Shown here: in pieces, positions 18,422-35,609 of the stretch
Layout: every line of letters begins with the position of its first letter
Numbering within the stretch: position 1 is the first letter of the stretch
DNA from: an uncultured bacterium
GTDB lineage: Bacteria > DAOPZR01
Direction of reading: 5' to 3'
Length of the DNA stretch: 35,610 nt
NCBI GenBank assembly: GCA_964637655.1
Contig: CAZWUZ010000007.1
Coordinates: 1 to 35,610 of the forward strand
The notes under the pieces: model-generated
What the model was told of the DNA's origin: nothing
What the model saw: only the letters and a program-made list of their open reading frames with translations
Databases searched by the model: none
Position numbers and translations under genes: made by a program

Positions 18422-19840
18422 TTATGCGTCCTTTTTGCGTCTTTTAGCGCAGATATTCACACCGCGAAGCGTCTTGATGGCTTCTGCCGGCGCCCCCTGT
18501 TTTTCCAGGTTGTCAAGCATAGCTGATGCAGCCCGGTTCAACGCTCTAGTGGCGCATTTAGCTCCATTGTTCGAAGTGCCTTCTCGGTGATAGATGTCAA
18601 CGTTTCCTCCATGAGTGTACGTCTTGAGCAATTCGGGGATAGAGTGCCCAAGATGCATGCTGATTGCAAGCAAATCCGAAGCCATAGCTGACTTCACTAA
18701 CGACGACGCGACAGTGTGCCTCAGCGCGTATGGCGTATACCGTTTCTGTTCATGCGTAGGCACGCCAACAAGAGCAGCTAGCTCTCGCGTCCGCCCAGCA
18801 ATTCTCGCCCAACTGCTTCGTAACATGTCTTTCGTGACCGGAAAAAGCGGTCCGTCGTCGCAAAGCTTGATACCCGCAGATGCAGCGTAAGCATCAATCA
18901 GTGATGCGATGTCAGCATGCAGCCATACACGTCTGGATTTTCCCTGGTTACGATAATATTTCGATTTCTGATTTTCCGGCCTGATCAGCAGATACGGTTG
19001 ATCCGAGAGCTGCAAATCCTGCCGCAAAGCCCGGTGCAACTCACTATTCCGTTGGCCTGTGTAGCTCATGACTAACCACAGAAAGGCAGCCCGTCTACCG
19101 TTCTTCCAGATTTCCCAACAGGCAAGACGATGGCAGGCAAGCATCGCCGGCGACAATTCGCGCGTGCGTGCCTCACGAATTTCTTCTTTGTCAGGGTTCT
19201 TTTGTGACTGTATGCGCTTGAAATACCGCTTGTACTTTGCCCGGAACAAAGAAACCGGATTGTCCAAAACAAAGCCCTCTGCAATTCCCTCCACAAAAAT
19301 GTTATTCAGCGTATTCACATAACGAACCGCCGTCATAGGCTGGCCGCCATTGGCAATCAGCAGATCGGCGAATTCCTTTATTGCTTCGGCATCAATCCTA
19401 TCCAAGCGTACGGGGTTGAAGTGCTCAATCAGGCGGTAAATCCGGTGGTTCTCGATTCCGCTATTCGGCGATGAGTATACAAAACCCCCGCTGGTATTAG
19501 TCGCAGAACTTGCGCGGCGCACAATCTTCCCTTTGGCAATTAGTGTTTCAATCATCTCAGCAAAGTTCTTTCGGCGATTCGTTGCCAGCATCGAACCCGT
19601 ATGAAGAGAGTCAATTTCATCACGCCAAATTGCCGCCAACGATTTTGCCCTGCGCAAATCAGTAATGTGTTTGGTTCCCTTGCGCTTGTCATGCGCCAGC
19701 GCATACCGATGTCCGTTTTTGGACACAACGATACGATAGCGCCGTTCCGTCTTTCCGTTTGCCAACGAATAATCATGATAAAATATATTGTTGACAACCT
19801 TCCCGTTTTCAACCGCCGGTAAATAATATTGCTTCGCCAT
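18422..19840 (-). CDS. Tyrosine recombinase / integrase
   Basis: Core-binding region RLDRIDAEAIKEF...TAVRYVNTL; catalytic YTGQRNSEL, QKSK, YALRHT, HLGHS...TYTH. Confidence 0.92.
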   Translation of the reverse strand: MAKQYYLPAVENGKVVNNIFYHDYSLANGKTERRYRIVVSKNGHRYALAHDKRKGTKHITDLRRAKSLAAIWRDEIDSLHTGSMLATNRRKNFAEMIETLIAKGKIVRRASSATNTSGGFVYSSPNSGIENHRIYRLIEHFNPVRLDRIDAEAIKEFADLLIANGGQPMTAVRYVNTLNNIFVEGIAEGFVLDNPVSLFRAKYKRYFKRIQSQKNPDKEEIREARTRELSPAMLACHRLACWEIWKNGRRAAFLWLVMSYTGQRNSELHRALRQDLQLSDQPYLLIRPENQKSKYYRNQGKSRRVWLHADIASLIDAYAASAGIKLCDDGPLFPVTKDMLRSSWARIAGRTRELAALVGVPTHEQKRYTPYALRHTVASSLVKSAMASDLLAISMHLGHSIPELLKTYTHGGNVDIYHREGTSNNGAKCATRALNRAASAMLDNLEKQGAPAEAIKTLRGVNICAKRRKKDA

Positions 19841-20440: not shown

Positions 20441-21091
20441 TTAAATGTCAATCACCGTGACCGGATAGCTCAGCCAATCCCATGAGCCACACAAGCAGAC
20501 GTTGTAAGCAGCTGTCCCGTTCTTCATCCTCACCCCACCATGCGTCCCAGTGTGGATGTGTCCGAATATATGACACCGCGGCCCGATCCGCTCAAGCTCA
20601 GTCCTGAGCGAGATCGACCCATGATGCCTGTCCGGGAACTCCTCTGGCGAATCACATATCCCACACGCCGGGCCATGTGTAATCAGAATATCAATCCCTG
20701 CAGGGATCTTCCGGTAGATTTCCAGCAACTCACTCTCATCCGCGCCGTACGCCCAGCCCATCAACCTGGGTGTCCATGGCGAGCCCCAGATACGCAGCCC
20801 GCCGACGGTAATCATTTCGTCCTCAAGGTAATCCCACCGCAAACCCATCCTCGCATGATTCATCCTGTGGTGCAGGAAGAAATCGTGGTTACCAGCGACA
20901 GCAACGATCCGCGCGGCTGGCACCTCTTCAAGCCATCGCTTCATCTTTGTCCGATAAAACTCATACACGGTCTCGAAGTCAATGGCCGACGACGGTGATA
21001 TGTCCCCGGCGATGACCATCAGGTCACACGCCGGGATGTCTCCCACGGGCGGCAGGTGGCCATGCGTGTCGCTCAGTGCCACGATTTTCAC
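20441..21091 (-). CDS. Calcineurin-like metallophosphoesterase (MPPED-like)
   Basis: SDTHG, AGD, AGNHD, WGSPWTP, LITHGP, FGHIH. GTG start overlaps the upstream stop (GTGA). Confidence 0.9.
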   Translation of the reverse strand: MKIVALSDTHGHLPPVGDIPACDLMVIAGDISPSSAIDFETVYEFYRTKMKRWLEEVPAARIVAVAGNHDFFLHHRMNHARMGLRWDYLEDEMITVGGLRIWGSPWTPRLMGWAYGADESELLEIYRKIPAGIDILITHGPACGICDSPEEFPDRHHGSISLRTELERIGPRCHIFGHIHTGTHGGVRMKNGTAAYNVCLCGSWDWLSYPVTVIDI

Positions 21092-21882
21092 TGAACGCTC
21101 TCCCGCCACGGCACCACCTCTATCGCGCCGCCATCGGTGACCCGCAAGATGACGCACTTTTCATGCCCCAGCGCAGTGACATCACACACCGCGCGCAGGC
21201 CGATGCACCGGCGCCCATCGACAACAACATCTACATACCAGTGCATGTGCCCGAGCAGGCACACCTGCGGCCGCAGCGCATCGAGCAGCACGTCTCCCTC
21301 GCGATAGCCACGCGCACTAGCATCGCGTCCGAAGGGCAGTCCGGCGCACTCCGCGATCCGGCGTGGCCAATCATGCAGCAGAAGAATATCGACCGGAGAC
21401 TCGGCGAGCAGCACGTCAATGTCATCACGCCGGATGTGAAGCTGCCCCCGGCGATTGCTGTTGTCGTGTTCCAGTCGCGGTAGCTGGCGTTGATAGTCAC
21501 GCATGCTGTAGTTACCCGACAGTCCCGCGATTCGCACCCCAAAACGCTCAACCACTCCGCTACGCCCGAGGAATCGCACGCCTGGCGTGACCTCGCCGCC
21601 GCCCCAGATCGGGGCGAGCAGTCGGACGGGTTCGTGGTTGCCGGCGACGTACAAGACCTCAGCGGGATACTGGTTTCCCCACTCCTTGAAATCTCCAAGC
21701 CGCCGATACCTGGCCGGCACGGGCATCGAAGCAATGTCCTCGTCACTGGCAGACGCATCGAAATCCCCGACCTGGAGGATCAGGCTGGGAGTAATCCCTG
21801 TCGCCCGCATCGCATCGCGACATAGCCGCACAGCCATGCCGTGATGCCCGTGGATGTCACCGAGCGCGAATATGTGGCGCAT
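21088..21882 (-). CDS. Metallophosphoesterase of the Dbr1 (RNA lariat debranching enzyme) type
   Basis: GDIHG, GDF...DIASMPVPARYRRLGDF, GNHE, GGEVTPGVRFLGRSGVV, RIAGLSG, DILLLHDWP, LRP...GHMH; RBS GGAGGA before ATG 21882. Confidence 0.8.
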   Translation of the reverse strand: MRHIFALGDIHGHHGMAVRLCRDAMRATGITPSLILQVGDFDASASDEDIASMPVPARYRRLGDFKEWGNQYPAEVLYVAGNHEPVRLLAPIWGGGEVTPGVRFLGRSGVVERFGVRIAGLSGNYSMRDYQRQLPRLEHDNSNRRGQLHIRRDDIDVLLAESPVDILLLHDWPRRIAECAGLPFGRDASARGYREGDVLLDALRPQVCLLGHMHWYVDVVVDGRRCIGLRAVCDVTALGHEKCVILRVTDGGAIEVVPWRESVQ

Positions 21883-21956
21883 CACTATAGTCCTCCGGGT
21901 CGACTTTATCGATATATACCCCGAAGTCCACACAATGTAGCGGTCAGTTATGAAGT

Positions 21957-22004
21957 ATTATAGCCATCCCGCCCGTCACTCGGTGCTAGCATGATGCTAG
22001 CACC
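21957..22004 (-). promoter_or_regulatory. Leftward promoter -10 box with perfect 23-bp palindrome
   Basis: Minus strand TATAAT at 21957-21962; GGTGCTAGCAT-G-ATGCTAGCACC at 21982-22004. Confidence 0.6.
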
Positions 22005-22127
22005 TATTTCCGGCGTGTCTTCCACATCCGACGAGACTTCGTTTCGATGCAACTATACATCTTGTGCGCAAGCTGTTTATGTATAGTTTCCCGTCGCTGC
22101 TACAACTATTTCTCGGCGAGATATGGC

Positions 22128-22155
22128 TTGACGATCGGTCGGATCGTGGTATGAT
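22128..22155 (+). promoter_or_regulatory. Putative sigma70 promoter for the HTH-HD gene with internal inverted repeat
   Basis: TTGACG-N16-TATGAT with extended TG; ACGATC-N5-GATCGT at 22131-22147. Confidence 0.55.
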
Positions 22156-22224
22156 TTATTGTGACATGTAGCGCTACTTTCAGAATGTAGCGTACAACGC
22201 AATATCACGCGAAGGAGGAGTTGG

Positions 22225-23043
22225 GTGAAACTGATCAAGGCAGGCATTTCGATGATTCCGGCCCCTGTCGGGATACGGTTTGTCCGAGCGCAGCTCGGCC
22301 TTACTCAAGCACAACTCGCGCATGCCATCGGTGTGTCGTACGCAACGATCAACCGTTGGGAGCGTGGGAAATACGAGGCGACTAAGGCAAACCGGGAAGC
22401 ACTCGAATCCTTCTGCCGTAAAAGAAAGGTCGACTACGAAACCTTTCAGCTCGGTGCGATGCTGCTGCAGATTATCACCAACGCTGATAAGTACACCGGC
22501 GAGCACTGCCATCGCGTCGCGATTCTCGTAGAGCATGTTGCTCGTCAGATTCGTGGACTCAACGTGGACGCGCTCAAGGCGGCTGCGATTCTGCATGACA
22601 CCGGAAAGATATTCGTTGATCCGCGTCTGTTGAAGAGCAAGCGTATATATAACGCTACTGAGCGTAAGCAAATGGCCGAGCATTCACCAGCCGGAGGCGT
22701 GCTGATAGGGCTGTTGATGGTCAAGCATCCCAAAGCAGCCACGTACGTCGCTCGCCACCACGATCGCCTTACCGGCAAGCCGTCAGACCGCATGGTTCCT
22801 CGTGAGGCGCGGTTGCTGGCAGTATGCGATGTTTTCGACGCCCTGACAACCACCAGATCTTACAAGACTGCCAAGTCAGTCAAGACAGCCATTGAGATGC
22901 TCAAGGCAGACAAAGGTCTCGATCAGCAGATGGTCGCCGCCTTGGCGCGCTGCGTTCGCCGCAAGGGGTTCCTCGACCGGCTCGAGGATGACAACCATCT
23001 TTATGTTTATGATGATGCCGCATTATCTGCCATCGGCACATAA
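22225..23043 (+). CDS. XRE-family HTH fused to HD-GYP-like phosphohydrolase
   Basis: RBS AAGGAGGAG; RAQLGLTQAQLAHAIGVSYATINRWERG; YTGEHCHRV, LHDTGK, HHDR, CDVFDALTTTRSYK; GYP loop absent. Confidence 0.88.
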   Translation: MKLIKAGISMIPAPVGIRFVRAQLGLTQAQLAHAIGVSYATINRWERGKYEATKANREALESFCRKRKVDYETFQLGAMLLQIITNADKYTGEHCHRVAILVEHVARQIRGLNVDALKAAAILHDTGKIFVDPRLLKSKRIYNATERKQMAEHSPAGGVLIGLLMVKHPKAATYVARHHDRLTGKPSDRMVPREARLLAVCDVFDALTTTRSYKTAKSVKTAIEMLKADKGLDQQMVAALARCVRRKGFLDRLEDDNHLYVYDDAALSAIGT

Positions 23044-23086
23044 TCAAGGCAACGTTTTGCACAGTGATTTCGCTGTCAAAAAGGGC

Positions 23087-23164
23087 AAAAAAAAGCGCCC
23101 GATTTAGCCGTCGGCGCCGCGGCCCTGGTTGGGCTTTCAACCAACCTATACCTATTTGTGATCC
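23087..23164 (-). ncRNA. Candidate ~78-nt small RNA (hairpin plus H-type pseudoknot, U8 tail)
   Basis: Own promoter upstream; hairpin GGTTGG/CCAACC; stems GGCCG/CGGCT and GCGCCGA/TCGGGCGC; T8 tract. Confidence 0.6.
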
Positions 23165-23170
23165 GTAGAC

Positions 23171-23199
23171 ATCCTACCTCATTTATCGGATTTTGTCAA
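23171..23199 (-). promoter_or_regulatory. sigma70 promoter for the candidate sRNA
   Basis: Minus strand TTGACA (23194-23199, containing the upstream gene's TGA stop) - N17 - TAGGAT (23171-23176). Confidence 0.7.
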
Positions 23200-23924
23200 G
23201 AAAAACTTAGTGTTTTTGTATCTATCATTTGTTGAGCAGTCTTGTGTTTTTCAACCACTTTCTCATCTATCTTGTTCTGTGAATTGATGGTTATAGATTT
23301 CCTGCTTTTCCCCACTATCCTAAGAGCAACCCTATGGAGAATTACATCACCGTTGAAGTCGATGAGACGCCGTATGAAGAAAAAATCCGCTCTAACAAGC
23401 GGAGGATAGAGATTGTTGCCTTGAAATACATAAGTCGGTGTGTGTATCGTATTGAATATCAGTAAAAAAGTATGTAATTTGCTCGCGTGTTTTTTTGCAC
23501 AACCGCTATTATCATCCCGGAATGTCCGTGTTGCAAAATCTTGATTGTATATAATCATATTTCTGAACGCCGTATTGATTCCTTTCTCATACTGCTCGAT
23601 CCCTAACAAATGAGGAATATTTAGTGTGTCCAACTTTATAAAATATGAGTTTCCGTCAAGGGTCATTCTCCTGATTTTTTGGCCAAAGCTAATGACAAGA
23701 GGAACGAGAATTCTAACTGGAAATTTATACCTGTAGAGAAAGTAGTCCTGTGAGTTCTCAAGAATCTTCTCAATTTGAACGTAGAGTTCTTCCTCGTATT
23801 CGAAAAACAACCTGTTGATCGGGGAAACCTTTTCATAAGTTTGTTGCTTTATACGAATATCTCGAGCGAATGATGTTGCTTCGGCCGTTTCCAGTAGCTT
23901 TTCCACGTGAACTTTTATCATCAT
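23196..23924 (-). CDS. PBECR4-like (BECR-fold) putative ribonuclease
   Basis: Strongly AT-rich gene; NIPHLLGI resembles the PBECR4 NFxHLxG signature; terminal PTYVF...ADFFF...TINS. Start 23924 or 23921 after GAGGT (longest ORF 23981). Confidence 0.55.
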   Translation of the reverse strand: MMIKVHVEKLLETAEATSFARDIRIKQQTYEKVSPINRLFFEYEEELYVQIEKILENSQDYFLYRYKFPVRILVPLVISFGQKIRRMTLDGNSYFIKLDTLNIPHLLGIEQYEKGINTAFRNMIIYNQDFATRTFRDDNSGCAKKHASKLHTFLLIFNTIHTPTYVFQGNNLYPPLVRADFFFIRRLIDFNGDVILHRVALRIVGKSRKSITINSQNKIDEKVVEKHKTAQQMIDTKTLSFS

Positions 23925-24502
23925 TATACCTCGCATTTCGCATAATTGAATGCATATATTATATATCCGATGCGGATTCAATAATAATCTGCGGTGCTAC
24001 TATTTCCCTTTGTCAATATCCATGAACACCAATCTGTCCTAGTCCGAACGTTTCGTTATTGTCTCACAAACCCTGCCAGCTGCATCGGCACAGACAGCGA
24101 GACACGATACCCAGCTAAATCCACTTATGCCGGTTCCACAATTTCATCAATTAGACCATATTCCAGCTGCCTGCTCCGCCGTCAGCCACCGGTTGCGATC
24201 TTGTAGAGCGCATCTAATTATGGCACACGAAACGGAAAAAAGGGGGGAACACTTTTCCGTTCAGCGACACAGTGATATGACCCTGGTTTTGTAACCAGGT
24301 TCCCACCGCCATCCGCCACGCGGCTTGTACGGTCTTCTTGCTGGGTTTCCTGCCCTTTTCCACCATGACCGCCATTATATCAGCCGCCATCCCGGCAAGC
24401 AAGCGGAAAATCGGCTCGCGCTGGTGCCGTAAGTACACAGGACTAAATTCTCACGTATCGCCCCCGGGGATGTCATTCCATCATGCAGGCTGATATAACG
24501 AC

Positions 24503-24531
24503 TTGCCTGTCAGAATATTGTGTGGTATTAT
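24503..24531 (+). promoter_or_regulatory. Putative sigma70 promoter
   Basis: TTGCCT-N17-TATTAT with extended TG, upstream of the large membrane protein gene. Confidence 0.5.
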
Positions 24532-24681
24532 AATCGCGGCAGTAGATATTGGGTATATTATGAATAGAGGCGATTTGCAATAGCCTCCTTGGGTGTATGT
24601 TGCAGTTGAATCAACAAACTCCGGCGCCTATTATGGTCGACATCCTCGGCCATGTGCGTAGGCGACCAACGAGGTTGGAAA

Positions 24682-26988
24682 ATGACTTCAGAAATGTCCT
24701 CCCGACGCACTAATGGCAGCCGTTTCCCCCTGTGGATTGTGTCGGCAATCTGCGCAGCGGCATATTGCCTGTGCTTCTTTCTTCCGTGGCTGGACTGCTC
24801 GTACAAAGGATCTACTGACTATATCATTGACGCTCAGCGCGTGATCAGCGGGAGTGTCAGTGGCTACGATTTGGCTAGCGGCTACACTCTGACAAAAGTA
24901 GATACTGCCAGAAATCCAATGAATCATCGCGATCAAGGTTCCGAGACAATTCTGGTCAAGTATTCTTCCAACAATATCGTGTGGGTTGTTCTAATCCTGG
25001 GATGTTGTTGTGTGCTTTTGAGTTTGCTTCAGGGAGTGTCGAGCAACAGGTTATTCCCGACATTATGCGGCATCATCGCAGCGATTCTGCTCTTAGGCGT
25101 ATTGTATCTTAACCAGTACTCTACATCTCTCGAGATCCGTCACGATAATATGCTTAGCAGGGAAAACTGGAACAACATCGTCGCTGATGCGTCATTATCC
25201 TATGGGGCCTATTTCGGCATACTCGCTAATATTTCGATATTTGCTTTGAATGGACTATTGTTATTATCCGGTCGCCGGAGACGGCAGCACGATACTTGCA
25301 CGGTAACTAATACTAGCAATCACACTATGCCGGCTTCCTGGACTCCATTCAAAGGACTCACCAGTGGATTATACTTACTTGTGGTGTTCTGTTTCATAAT
25401 GCCGTTCTTCAACATCAAGTGTGGTAATGCCGATGTCATGACAATTAGCGGGACGCAATTGCTTTTAGGAGCCGACTATCAGGAATCCGGTGGAATGTTC
25501 ACGCGGGGACAAACCCGGCATATCCCCCCCGATACCTCGGCTGTACTTGCGTTCATATTTATTATCCTTGGTGCTGTATTGGTATGGCTGCCTCGCAAGA
25601 TTGGCAATATCACCTCGCTTCTCACAGGCCTTTTGGCCGTCATTATGCTGTTTGCGCTAAAACTCGTCAACAACAATGCCATATCCAGTCAAGGGCAGGG
25701 TATGCTCACTCTGCAAGCACTTGCCGGTTACTATTGCACTGTAGCGGGTGTTGTCGCTGCTTGCATTGCCAATATTGTGCAACTGATTTTCAGTGGAGCA
25801 ATTTCTCGATATGAAGTCGAGAGAGCGAGTAATTCCCACACCTCCGATCATGGTCGCAGTCAGGAGGATGATGCCATTTTCAATTCGAGGCATTCGGAAT
25901 ATTCACAAACATATACTGGCACAGCAACAGTGGCAGACAGGTTCTCTAACATAATGTATCAGATAGATCCCAACGGAAAGTTAGCTGTTCAGGCAAAGCA
26001 TTTGTGGCAGTCCTATGTATTCCGCTTCGGACGTTTGGCAAGTTCACCGGCGACATTTTTCGTAGAGTTGGGTTCTCCCTCTTTCCTCGGCGATGCCGTC
26101 AGATTTGCCGTTGTAACCGTAGCAATTACCATCTTCATCGCTATGTTCTTCATGCCGTTGTATGTGTCTGGAAGTTCGCATTTTGTCAGCTACATAACAT
26201 TGCTCATCATGCAGATAATCGGATTTGCCATGTTGTGGGGAGCATCCATAATTTTCTCTCTGATCTTGTCGGCGGCACAAAACAAGAGTTTGTCATTGAC
26301 AGCAATGATGTCAATCGCATGCTATGCGACATTGGCATGCCCATTGGCCGCTTTGCACCCCTTGCTTTGGCTTATCGCAGGCGCCGCCGGCGTCGTTATC
26401 ACTGTGCTGGCTTTCCGGAGTATGAATTCCGCAACTGTCCACGCATCTGTATCGTCTTCCGCAGTTCCAGTCATGACTGAAGCCGTGCCATCCTCTGCTG
26501 ACAGTCATCAGTCTGATGCTTCCGGCGTCGGGCACGCGGAAGCACACCTGCAACAACCACAGCCAACAACGAGCATCATCACAGCCGATGCGCCGGCCGG
26601 CTCAACTATCACGGTCGAATCAGCGACACCCGCTTTCGCGCCTGTTTCCATCACAGATCAATCCCCTCTGCCCCAAATCATCGATCCAAGGCAGCTTATC
26701 TTTGATAATCATTTGACTGACCTCGCGTTGGCGTATCTCTCATGGGCGCGCGAGCAGACTGATGATAAGGCTCGGATATTCGGTGAGAAAATGGCTATAG
26801 TCGGCAATGATGAGCTTGCATATGACCCGGTTGAGGTTGAGCGCAGTATTCATTCAGATTCCAACACAAGCCCTTTGATCCTGTTGGGAATTTTGCTGTT
26901 CTGTCACACGAAGATCCGACCATTCGACAATTACAACGATCTTGCGGGCCGGCTTGTCTCTCGCATTTCTAACACATCAAAACCATAG
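24682..26988 (+). CDS. Multi-module polytopic membrane protein with Yip1-like region
   Basis: Two similar TM modules (FFLPW...SG..L...YGAY and FIMPFF...SG.QL...AGYY), then SSPATFF and further TM helices, low-complexity linker, soluble tail; RBS GAGG before ATG 24682. Confidence 0.7.
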   Translation: MTSEMSSRRTNGSRFPLWIVSAICAAAYCLCFFLPWLDCSYKGSTDYIIDAQRVISGSVSGYDLASGYTLTKVDTARNPMNHRDQGSETILVKYSSNNIVWVVLILGCCCVLLSLLQGVSSNRLFPTLCGIIAAILLLGVLYLNQYSTSLEIRHDNMLSRENWNNIVADASLSYGAYFGILANISIFALNGLLLLSGRRRRQHDTCTVTNTSNHTMPASWTPFKGLTSGLYLLVVFCFIMPFFNIKCGNADVMTISGTQLLLGADYQESGGMFTRGQTRHIPPDTSAVLAFIFIILGAVLVWLPRKIGNITSLLTGLLAVIMLFALKLVNNNAISSQGQGMLTLQALAGYYCTVAGVVAACIANIVQLIFSGAISRYEVERASNSHTSDHGRSQEDDAIFNSRHSEYSQTYTGTATVADRFSNIMYQIDPNGKLAVQAKHLWQSYVFRFGRLASSPATFFVELGSPSFLGDAVRFAVVTVAITIFIAMFFMPLYVSGSSHFVSYITLLIMQIIGFAMLWGASIIFSLILSAAQNKSLSLTAMMSIACYATLACPLAALHPLLWLIAGAAGVVITVLAFRSMNSATVHASVSSSAVPVMTEAVPSSADSHQSDASGVGHAEAHLQQPQPTTSIITADAPAGSTITVESATPAFAPVSITDQSPLPQIIDPRQLIFDNHLTDLALAYLSWAREQTDDKARIFGEKMAIVGNDELAYDPVEVERSIHSDSNTSPLILLGILLFCHTKIRPFDNYNDLAGRLVSRISNTSKP

Positions 26989-32666: not shown

Positions 32667-33332
32667 TCATTCTCCTGTCACGAAGCCAGCAAGACGAACC
32701 GACATTGGAATTCTTCCTTTGTACTCTGACAAATCAATCGGCGATGGAGTTACAATCTCGTCAATCAGCCCATATGCCAACGCCTCTTTCGCCGTCATCC
32801 ACCGGTTGCGATCGAAATCCCGCGTGACCTTACCCACCGGCTGCCCGGTCACCTCGGCGATCATTCCGTACAGGCGTTCCCGGAGTCGCACGACATGAAC
32901 CGCTTCGATGGCAATGTCGCTCGCCTGTCCCTGCACACCGCTCAGCGGCTGGTGCAACATCAACTCACAATTCGGCATCACTTTTCGCTTCCCGCGCGGC
33001 GCCGCGCAGGTCAACAGCATGGCACCCATCGACGCGCAACATCCGGTTCCAATCGTAGTGATCGGATTCGGCACCAGCCGGCAGAGGTCGATCATCGCCA
33101 GGCCGTCGTAGACGCCGCCACCAGGAGAATTGACATATAGTGTTATATTTCGTTGCGGATCCTCGTCGCTGATCGCAAGCAGCTGCAACATCAGAGCGTG
33201 ACTCGCCGACTCGTCGATCATACCGCTCACCATGATGATCCCCTGGCGGAGCAGGCGTTCCGTCAGCGATTGGCCGCCGCACGAGGTTTCTCTCTCGATT
33301 CTGATAAGCCCGGTCGCGTCTCTGGTCGTCAT
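32667..33332 (-). CDS. clpP: ClpP-family protease subunit
   Basis: LYVNSPGG, CASMGA (Ser), MLHQP (His), DRNRWMTAKEALAYGLID; RBS AAGGAGG. Confidence 0.9.
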   Translation of the reverse strand: MTTRDATGLIRIERETSCGGQSLTERLLRQGIIMVSGMIDESASHALMLQLLAISDEDPQRNITLYVNSPGGGVYDGLAMIDLCRLVPNPITTIGTGCCASMGAMLLTCAAPRGKRKVMPNCELMLHQPLSGVQGQASDIAIEAVHVVRLRERLYGMIAEVTGQPVGKVTRDFDRNRWMTAKEALAYGLIDEIVTPSPIDLSEYKGRIPMSVRLAGFVTGE

Positions 33333-33333
33333 G

Positions 33334-33852
33334 TCACTTTCCTCCTTCTGTTGCTACCCACTCATACACATAGGTCGCCATCTCGTTGTGCAGCCGTGCG
33401 GTCTCCTCAGGTCGCTCGCCCCAGGCTACCATGCGCTGGTAAGTATCTGATGCGCGCGGGTCCGCCTGCGGCTGAGGGCGTGGCGGCGGCGCTGGTTTTT
33501 GATCATTGTCGTCAGCGTTGTCGCTATCTTCCACATCGATACCTTGCTCATCGTAATCATCCTCATCAGCATTCTCATCCAGCGCGCGCAGGCTCGGAGT
33601 CATCTTGATTTCCGATGTTGCGGCGTGCTTCTGTCGTCGCTGTGCCACTTCGCGCTTGTGCCGCGCAATCACTTCATCTACGATCTGATTGGCTCGGGCA
33701 CTGTCCCCCCTACCGACCTTAGCAAACAGCAGCGCATAATTGACCCGTTCCTCCAGCTCCAGGTCATCCATTTGCTGTTGCAGGGATGTCCGCGTTTTTC
33801 CTTTCTGCTGTTGATCCTCTCTCTTGCTGCCTGCATCGTCATTCTGCTTCAT
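33334..33852 (-). CDS. Hypothetical acidic/low-complexity protein
   Basis: ATGA overlap with the upstream gene, RBS GGAGG, stop 1 nt before the clpP start; D/E-rich and Pro-rich segments. Confidence 0.75.
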   Translation of the reverse strand: MKQNDDAGSKREDQQQKGKTRTSLQQQMDDLELEERVNYALLFAKVGRGDSARANQIVDEVIARHKREVAQRRQKHAATSEIKMTPSLRALDENADEDDYDEQGIDVEDSDNADDNDQKPAPPPRPQPQADPRASDTYQRMVAWGERPEETARLHNEMATYVYEWVATEGGK

Positions 33853-35609
33853 GACGCTACCTCCTCCGGCAGTGTCGGATCCACCCCGACTACGTATCCG
33901 CTCAAATCCGGCACAGGTGCAGCACTATCCTCGCCGGCACCCGATTCGCGCAGTTTGATGTCCGCCACGTTGTCCTTATCACGTTCTCGCTCAACGTTCC
34001 GCCCCAGCTCCACCACCGTCTCGCCGAACGCATCTGCCATCAGCCCCGGCAGCCGAACCCGCTTCCCCCCGCGTCCATCATCGCGCAGGGTAGCCGTAGA
34101 GATAACCGTCACGCGCCCGAGGTCAACCAGGTCACGAAACCGTCCGTACTCCACTCGCCGACGCTCGATAAATGGCTGGGCCGCATGATACATTGCCCCA
34201 CCCGGACGTGACAGATTATCCGACAATGCATCAGCATCGTCTAGCACGACAACCGCGCTTTCCATCCTTACCTTGTCATACGAGCAACGCTCGGCGAGTT
34301 CAGCGACGAGATTCCGTCCGCGCGCGAGCTCGTGCCGTCCACACACAACTAGTGCCGCGACGCCTTCGGCCGCGCAGCGCTCCGCGATCGATTCCGCCAC
34401 CCGCGACTTGCCGCTCCCAGGCGTGCCCGCAAGCAGGATGCGGTTACCAATGATGTCTCCGTCGTGGTCAAGAGCCTCGGCGAGCGCCGCGTCACGCCGG
34501 CGCGCCAGGTCCGACGCCTGCTCGACGCGGATTTGCGCGGCGTGGCCCCAGTCAGCGAAGCACGGCGGGAGCTCGATTAGCTGCACATCAGTATCTCTGT
34601 CGCGGTAGAGTAATGCCTCGAACGGACGCAGCTTGCGCAGGCAGCCCACGTCAGTCAGGCCTTTTCCGCCGAACAGCTTGCCGAGGTCGTCAGTGATGTC
34701 CTGCCTGAGCATAATCTGGTTCTGCATGTTCTGGATCAGGTTATTCACGGCCGCCTTACCCCGGTCACCAGCCGCGGCATACAGTGCACCGAGTTCCTGC
34801 GTGGCGCATACCATCCCTGCCCGCGCCTGGCGGCACATCGCTGCGAATTGGTCATCGCTTCCCGACTTAGCACCCACTGTGAGGAAGTTCTGGTATTCAT
34901 CGCATATGAAAAACACCGGACGTGTCTGCTCAAGCGTCTCGTCAGTGATACGTCGCATGACCGACGAATAGAATCTCGCCTTGAGCATCAAGCCGACGAA
35001 CCTTGCCATTTCGCCATGCGCGGACTGTGGCATGTGCAACACGACAATCATTCCGTCATTGATAATGTCCTCTATCTCAGCAGCCTTCTCATGCCGTCTA
35101 GGATCGAATGTCCTGCACATATCATACCCAGAGAAGTCATGCAGGAACCGATTGATTTCGGCTTCGATCGAAGCTTTGACGCGGCCATCTTGGTCGTTGT
35201 GTCTCACAAAGTACTTGCGCAAGTAATCGACCGTGTATCGTTCCTCGCTTGTTTTCGCTGCGCGCGGATTGTCGAGCACCGTCGCGACCATGCGCCGAAC
35301 TTCGGCATCCTGCCCAAGCAGATGCAGCAGATCACCGACACCGACTGGACGCGTCATATCATTAGCGTGCGTCCTCAACAGCAACACATAGTTTTTGACC
35401 AGTTCTTCCGCGCTCTGCAGCCAAAACGCTTCTCTCGGGTCCATGCCACCGGCGATCGTGACCGCTGCAGTTACGATCGTCGACGCAATGGCCGCCGCCG
35501 GCATCGATCCTGGGAACATCCTAATCTTGTGGTCGCCATGCGGGTCCAACACAACGACATCCTCCTCTCTCCCGCAAGCGCGCGCCCATTGCACAATGTA
35601 CGGAGTCAG
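33849..35609 (-). CDS. VirD4/TraD-like coupling protein C-terminal part fused to a second P-loop (AAA-like) domain, 5'-truncated by window edge
   Basis: EAFWLQSA, FFICDEYQNF, RQARAGMVCATQ, LIQNMQNQI; then ILLAGTPGSGKS and VVVLDDAD. Frame is open to the window end. Confidence 0.75.
   Translation of the reverse strand: MTPYIVQWARACGREEDVVVLDPHGDHKIRMFPGSMPAAAIASTIVTAAVTIAGGMDPREAFWLQSAEELVKNYVLLLRTHANDMTRPVGVGDLLHLLGQDAEVRRMVATVLDNPRAAKTSEERYTVDYLRKYFVRHNDQDGRVKASIEAEINRFLHDFSGYDMCRTFDPRRHEKAAEIEDIINDGMIVVLHMPQSAHGEMARFVGLMLKARFYSSVMRRITDETLEQTRPVFFICDEYQNFLTVGAKSGSDDQFAAMCRQARAGMVCATQELGALYAAAGDRGKAAVNNLIQNMQNQIMLRQDITDDLGKLFGGKGLTDVGCLRKLRPFEALLYRDRDTDVQLIELPPCFADWGHAAQIRVEQASDLARRRDAALAEALDHDGDIIGNRILLAGTPGSGKSRVAESIAERCAAEGVAALVVCGRHELARGRNLVAELAERCSYDKVRMESAVVVLDDADALSDNLSRPGGAMYHAAQPFIERRRVEYGRFRDLVDLGRVTVISTATLRDDGRGGKRVRLPGLMADAFGETVVELGRNVERERDKDNVADIKLRESGAGEDSAAPVPDLSGYVVGVDPTLPEEVAS

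Follow-up and report, generated by a model that had tools for sequence, protein, structure and literature searches.

A possible solitary PBECR4-like gene, followed by a hairpin and a candidate intrinsic terminator, in a mobile-element mosaic of an uncultured bacterium

The region described here is best explained, with belief and doubt about evenly balanced, as a solitary and divergent PBECR-like gene followed by a small hairpin and an ordinary intrinsic terminator. It lies in the window, that is, the whole stretch of DNA analysed, which is an entire 35.6-kb contig (C7). The metagenome-assembled genome to which this contig belongs amounts to 4.0 Mb in 485 contigs and has a G + C content of 65.5%. 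According to this explanation, the orphan gene would have been acquired recently, within an integrase-bearing mosaic of mobile elements, as a solitary and very divergent member of the clade of BECR RNases of phages and mobile elements, with PBECR4 as its closest family. Its product, P0001, would by analogy with the family be a metal-independent endoRNase, which would act through His104, in the core helix at the N-terminal side, together with a C-terminal serine or threonine (Thr211 and Ser214 are the candidates), and would be deployed in the conflict between mobile elements and their host. The DNA behind the gene would then be its 3' untranslated region, consisting of the small hairpin and a Rho-independent terminator and made largely of resident GC-rich DNA beside which the AT-rich gene landed, and the additional pairing by which a pseudoknot can be drawn there would be coincidental, so that an RNA partner would not be needed.

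The orphan gene encodes 241 amino acids and occupies 23196..23921 on the minus strand, with an alternative in-frame ATG at 23924 and a GAGG (23932-23929, minus strand) before its start; this is the place at which the original prediction had put it, and the reading frame can be followed directly in the DNA. Its G + C content is only 37.7%, against the 65.5% of the genome. The protein P0001 has no match in Pfam, NCBIfam or PADLOC, and a PBECR match in Pfam is absent even at E<=1. A word-indexed search of 5.8 billion proteins returned P0001 itself alone, and HMMER, run in full over 1.84 billion representatives, gave at E<=0.001 P0001 itself and one other protein, P0002 (E 1.3e-4), to which P0001 is 31% identical over 134 residues in a pairwise BLASTP comparison (E 7e-13). 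P0002 in turn has seven close relatives, all of them metagenomic, and the family therefore counts nine members (P0001-P0009), the relatives of P0001 being eight metagenome proteins only. Among the phage protein families of PHROGs, P0001 has no match, and the unnamed phrog_15595 matches three of the nine family members (best E 0.001). Searches for further homologue loci gave none in genome_contigs, none in viral_contigs and two in metagenome_contigs (L009 and L010). In addition, short contigs in four DNA runs, all from the same wastewater study, show no difference from the window at positions 23000-23930.

PBECR4 (PF18813) is a phage-type RNase domain of the Barnase-EndoU-ColicinE5/D-RelE (BECR) kind, as described by Iyer et al. 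2017 (PMC5512222). When the nine family members were scanned singly with Pfam, PBECR4 was the top family and matched six of them, while PBECR2 matched four and PBECR3 one; P0001 is not among the PBECR4 matches. The best PBECR4 E-value in the family is 4.1e-5, and P0002 reaches 19.8 bits, but all PBECR4 scores of the nine members scanned are under the Pfam gathering cut-off (27 bits). Canonical PBECR4 genes were collected with the Pfam model from three samples of genomes (2 genomes out of 301 were positive in the first, 8 out of 39 in the second and 35 out of 190 in the third), and 39 distinct canonical ORFs were extracted from them. Against these, the nine-member alignment gave a modest hhalign probability of 76.1% (E 2.3e-5, 89 columns), and the aligned stretch begins at the FPHLxG motif. 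In the merged alignment of 41 sequences, His104, which lies within the motif NIPHLLGI, is the sole invariant residue, and Leu105 and Gly107 are conserved in at least 90% of the sequences. In the reverse direction, an HMM search over 173 ORFs gave weak matches, the best with E 4e-4; however, PBECR4 proteins make up six of its eight matches with E<0.1 although they are just 40 of the 173 ORFs searched, which is an enrichment.

As to the structure, an AlphaFold2 (AF2) model computed with the alignment is usable for a core of residues 92-204 only (pLDDT about 60-90) and is poor outside it, with a mean pLDDT of 53.6 and the N-terminal ~90 residues unmodelled. In the core, His104 lies in a helix (residues 99-106), which is followed by a helical insert (117-160) and by strands at 164-167, 180-187 and 193-200. 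Foldseek found nothing at E<=0.001 in PDB and BFVD, and the highest Z among 48,161 chains compared by VIA-align was 3.7, which is not significant; BECR-type toxins (6af4_C, 6cp8_A and 6cp9_A) are among the weak Foldseek rows at E about 1. PDB sequence searches with the nine-member and the 41-sequence alignments gave noise only, and no solved structure of the PBECR clade could be found by PDB sequence search. To our knowledge, no tested substrate has been reported for the clade either. Of the PBECR4-like RNase of the original prediction, the remote homology is supported by the sub-threshold matches of six of the nine members, the hhalign result and the invariant His104, while the BECR fold stays a prediction, as the fold searches gave no significant match.

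PBECR families are described as carrying a His within their N-terminal helix as well as a Thr or Ser near the C-terminus, as occurring in solo versions in phages and mobile elements, and as having host or phage mRNAs, or CRISPR RNAs, as proposed targets (Iyer et al. 2017, PMC5512222). P0001 has the helix histidine, the helix being that of the AF2 model, and its C-terminal Thr/Ser is uncertain: in the 41-sequence alignment, the segment ITINSQ, which contains Thr211 and Ser214, comes to stand close to the PxS of the canonical members, and pLDDT is below 50 there. Taken together, P0001 is probably a distant PBECR4-like endoRNase with a predicted BECR fold.

Unlikely, but deserving serious weight, is the alternative that P0001 is not an RNase, in which case the gene would be an orphan of another or a degenerate function which has a short motif in common with PBECR4 and is followed by a plain terminator. 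The lack of a direct Pfam match for P0001, the family scores below the gathering cut-off, an hhalign probability of just 76%, the empty fold searches and the 90 unmodelled residues at the N-terminus all speak for it. It has to be set against these points, however, that three independent weak links (Pfam, hhalign and the reverse HMM search) agree on one and the same clade, and that the one residue which never varies in the 41 sequences is the catalytic-type histidine of this family.

The surroundings of the PBECR-like gene fit an arrival by way of mobile elements. A tyrosine integrase (18422-19840), two adjacent calcineurin-like phosphoesterases (20441-21933) and a protein with an XRE-type HTH and an HD domain (22225..23043, plus strand), which is the convergent neighbour of the orphan gene, stand on one side of it; the phosphoesterase pair and the divergent XRE-HTH/HD gene stand together (window 20441-23043). 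On the other side, upstream of the orphan gene, lies a frameshifted remnant of the 3' end of clpP (24138-24200, minus strand), which encodes ...EYGLIDEIVEPA* and is shifted in frame by one base when compared with the intact clpP found further along the window, with an AAA ATPase, at 32667-33332; the remnant is 83-88% identical to positions 32752-32813. Close upstream of the orphan gene, the remnant marks the border of an old insertion or rearrangement, and it serves as the marker by which the region can be read as a mosaic of mobile-element debris and genes. Weak flanking inverted repeats (I3 and I4, 72-86%) were treated as chance.

Three further features of the window were noted. Its end (32667-35594, minus strand) holds ClpP, a 172-aa ORF and the AAA ATPase, all in the same direction, the ClpP and the ATPase being recognised by their Pfam domains. 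Between 24652 and 32077 there are large ORFs of 778, 200, 540 and 765 aa without a Pfam match at E<=0.001, and the 778-aa product resembles a multi-pass membrane protein. Moreover, a conserved element of about 110-130 nt abuts the clpP remnant at 24202-24330. This element, which recurs in L006 (G000:C17), L003 (G001:C108) and L005 (G001:C169), so that each of two related genomes holds at least two copies, consists of two hairpins (AACCTGGTT..AACCAGGGT and ACGGAAAA..TTTTCCGT) and ends sharply at ...GCGCTCTACA; it has no Rfam match, and one variant contig (run X4) departs from the window at 24326. The element may represent one end of a mobile element, or else a small RNA not described before.

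The HTH-HD protein has an orthologue (64%) in G001 (C82), where it adjoins an IstB-like gene (recognised from the translated sequence, read directly rather than by a family search), and a paralogue (56%) in G000 (C9). The DNA downstream of both was inspected for hairpins that might belong to the HTH-HD gene and is unrelated to that in the window, and because these relatives have different downstream DNA elsewhere, the HTH-HD gene does not appear to be tied to the orphan gene. The DNA downstream of the intact clpP likewise has no resemblance to the terminator of the orphan gene.

Behind the orphan gene, the DNA holds on the minus strand every element that had been described for it, namely the stop codon inside a TTGACA, the 17-nt spacer, the TAGGAT, the hairpins, the pairings and the T8. 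An AT-rich, unpaired 18-nt stretch (GGATCACAAATAGGTATA, 23147..23164), the 5' part of a proposed 78-nt RNA and at the same time a part of the gene's 3' UTR, is followed by hairpin 1 (23127..23146, GGTTGG and CCAACC around an 8-nt loop, -8.8 kcal/mol). Next comes a stem of GCGCCGA (23117-23111) and TCGGGCGC (23102-23095) with one bulged G (-9.1 kcal/mol), and directly after this stem a T8 tract (23094-23087). The stem and tract together (23087..23117) are a GC-rich stem-loop and then a U-tract downstream of a stop codon, and hence have the make-up of an intrinsic terminator, which would serve the minus strand because the plus strand has an A8 before the stem and no T-run after it. A simple terminator scanner listed instead an overlapping hairpin, GGGCGC-T8-GCCC, at 23100-23083. 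The contrast in composition to which the original prediction had drawn attention is real: the structured 3' part has a G + C content of 69.2%, next to 37.7% in the gene, and the switch is sharp and lies near 23147. Since the structured part is close in composition to the host and unlike the gene, the hairpins look like resident DNA rather than cargo that arrived with the gene.

The TGA stop of the gene (23198-23196) is inside TTGACA (23199-23194), and this hexamer, a 17-nt spacer and TAGGAT (23176-23171) together form a sigma-70-like promoter match (23171..23199, minus strand). It agrees with the consensus at 10 of 12 positions, and its spacing is within the usual 16-18 nt. In the 35.6-kb window there are 11 such 10/12 matches over both strands, and when the other ten are read against the ORF lists, four are in plausible promoter positions. 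Shuffles of 23140-23260 yielded a 10/12 match on that strand in 117 of 5000 cases. The site is therefore moderately unusual and among the best in the window, a candidate promoter by its consensus match only. The RNA region downstream of it has no credible ORF, as had been noted before, because the only frame, a 79-aa one with a TTG start (22901..23140), crosses the terminator and lies antisense to the gene next to it. Because the site is a 10/12 match and rare in local shuffles, a minor share of probability is kept for an independent short RNA, whatever its role.

Such an RNA could be an independent or 3'-UTR-derived sRNA that has nothing to do with neutralising P0001 and acts in trans or in the control of the 3' end of the HD gene. 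Behind the promoter-like site, the region is laid out much as many bacterial sRNAs are: the AU-rich, seed-like 5' end is unpaired, a hairpin comes next, and the terminator has a U-tail. The sRNA is improbable, however, since conservation was not seen in any search. A DNA search of 61 genomes, among which there is one relative of the source genome from the same family, matched the 24138-24300 part only and not the 3' region, and genome_contigs holds no exact copy of a 26-nt segment taken from the RNA. Nor does complementarity to the adjacent mRNA exceed that of shuffles: 56 of 60 shuffles of the whole putative RNA pair with the mRNA of the gene at least as well, and for the 5' part of the RNA this is true of 54 of 100 shuffles.

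The original prediction itself had read the region as a type III-like toxin-antitoxin or Abi module, in which the stop-overlapping promoter would give a ~78-nt pseudoknotted RNA, single-copy and downstream of the gene, that inhibits a BECR-fold RNase. Its pairings exist. The S1 helix, between GGCCG (23124-23120) and CGGCT (23110-23106) in the terminator loop (23106..23124, minus strand), has -6.5 kcal/mol as a lone hairpin, and together with the terminator stem it would make an H-type pseudoknot. But S1 is within what chance gives: when the upstream sequence is shuffled or made at random, 4.5-15.7% of the results contain a 5-bp helix of this geometry (L1 of at most 4, L2 of at most 2), and 3 of the 46 terminator-like hairpins that a strict finder listed in the genome have one as well, although that finder missed the bulged hairpin of the window itself. 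Furthermore, the crossing helices sum to -15.6 kcal/mol (-9.1 and -6.5) with the pseudoknot penalty not yet counted, and the nested optimum for the same 3' part is about -17.2 kcal/mol, so that the nested fold is at least as stable even before the penalty. The 91-nt region as a whole (MFE -23.9 kcal/mol) is no more stable than its shuffles, 140 of 200 of which fold at least as well (z = +0.54). The Rfam check that had been suggested gave no match at E<=10 in 22000-25000, TRF detected no tandem array in 22500-24700, and no repeat family of the type III antitoxin kind was found.

The 3' regions of the homologues, for which a test of covariation had been suggested, were compared for two loci, L009 and L010. 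Behind their P0002-family genes, L009 (3095-3300) and L010 (1528-1722) have an AT-rich 3' region which is 81-82% identical between them. Within it there is one hairpin of 7 bp (CCAGTTT/AAACTGG), and its end is formed by a longer hairpin of 20-21 bp in which seven pairs show compensatory changes and which has no U-tract. This element has no counterpart behind the orphan gene: a covariance model built on it finds nothing there, the best hit in 22500-24500 having E 1.6 and lying elsewhere. An 8-mer (TAGGTATA) common to the 3' UTR in the window and the loop of the L009 hairpin was judged to be chance, and the covariance model has no match; a conserved small ORF (PVLGINWQT...) downstream in L009 and L010 was set aside, as there is no shared start codon and the frame relative to the main gene differs. 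The similarity of L009 and L010 stops right after the long hairpin, in the manner of a cassette boundary, and L009 starts with the 3' end of a tmRNA (nt 1-83); tmRNA 3' ends are a classic insertion site of islands. The 3' region of the orphan gene itself is known as a single sequence.

Canonical PBECR4 genes point in the same direction. At most of the 39 canonical solo loci, none of the neighbouring ORFs is coupled to the PBECR4 gene, and similarity in downstream DNA was seen in 16 pairs vs 102 pairs for coding DNA, the long downstream matches being confined to pairs that are also alike in their coding DNA. Because coupled ORFs are mostly absent and pairs alike downstream are few, a solitary state is normal for PBECR genes, and it seems, as far as these loci go, to be the rule.

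The RNA antitoxin, for which the promoter-like site, the existing pairings, the absence of a protein partner near the RNase-like gene in the ORF list of the window and the existence of RNA antitoxins other than ToxI arrays, such as RCd22 with AbiF (PMC12373285), can be cited, is very improbable, since the pseudoknot helix is within chance, repeats and an Rfam family are absent, canonical solo PBECR4 genes have no generally conserved downstream element, the L009/L010 element is not matched here, and the structured part is host-like in G + C content although a co-transferred module would be expected to share the composition of its gene, as is the case in L009 and L010 with their AT-rich 3' regions.

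If the gene is indeed PBECR-like and solitary, and is followed by no more than a hairpin and an ordinary terminator, nine very divergent metagenome proteins would join the PBECR clade, which is a modest result; in addition, the case would illustrate that a terminator beside a foreign gene can mimic a designed RNA partner. Should the short RNA nevertheless be made and neutralise the protein, it would amount to a new toxin-antitoxin layout, with a downstream, non-repeat RNA and a toxin fold that type III systems are not known to have.

Among known systems, the type III toxin-antitoxin modules (ToxIN, CptIN and TenpIN) resemble the locus in that an endoRNase-like protein stands beside a stretch for which an H-type pseudoknot can be drawn. 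They differ from it in the protein, since P0001 has no ToxN, AbiQ, CptN or TenpN match in Pfam and PADLOC, and in the RNA, since the candidate is single-copy with no tandem repeats (TRF, 22500-24700), lies downstream and not upstream of the gene, and is not conserved, whereas a type III antitoxin is described as made of multiple repeats (PMC8860590). The locus lacks two defining type III features, the toxin family and the upstream tandem-repeat antitoxin. A different RNA-protein layout is that of AbiF and RCd22 in Clostridioides difficile, in which a non-coding RNA not of the ToxI type is reported to neutralise an RNA-targeting Abi protein by direct binding (PMC12373285); this is a precedent for other layouts of Abi systems, which speaks for the RNA antitoxin in principle only, and no motif or conservation of such a kind is known here.

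PBECR4 itself is nearer. P0001 has with it in common the FPHLxG-type motif with an invariant histidine in a predicted helix and a similarity at the profile level, as well as a solo gene in a mobile-element context with no coupled partner, as at most canonical solo loci. On the other hand, P0001 is under every curated threshold, has extra N-terminal ~90 residues and the helical insert 117-160, and belongs to a nine-member family known from metagenomes only. As to the BECR fold, which is an N-terminal helix followed by a four- or five-stranded sheet, the model of P0001 comprises a helix, the helical insert and three strands. Finally, the DNA behind the gene resembles a Rho-independent terminator in its GC-rich stem and U8 behind a stop codon and in its facing a convergent gene, and it differs from one in nothing essential: its stem has a single bulge, and five bases upstream are able to pair with its loop.
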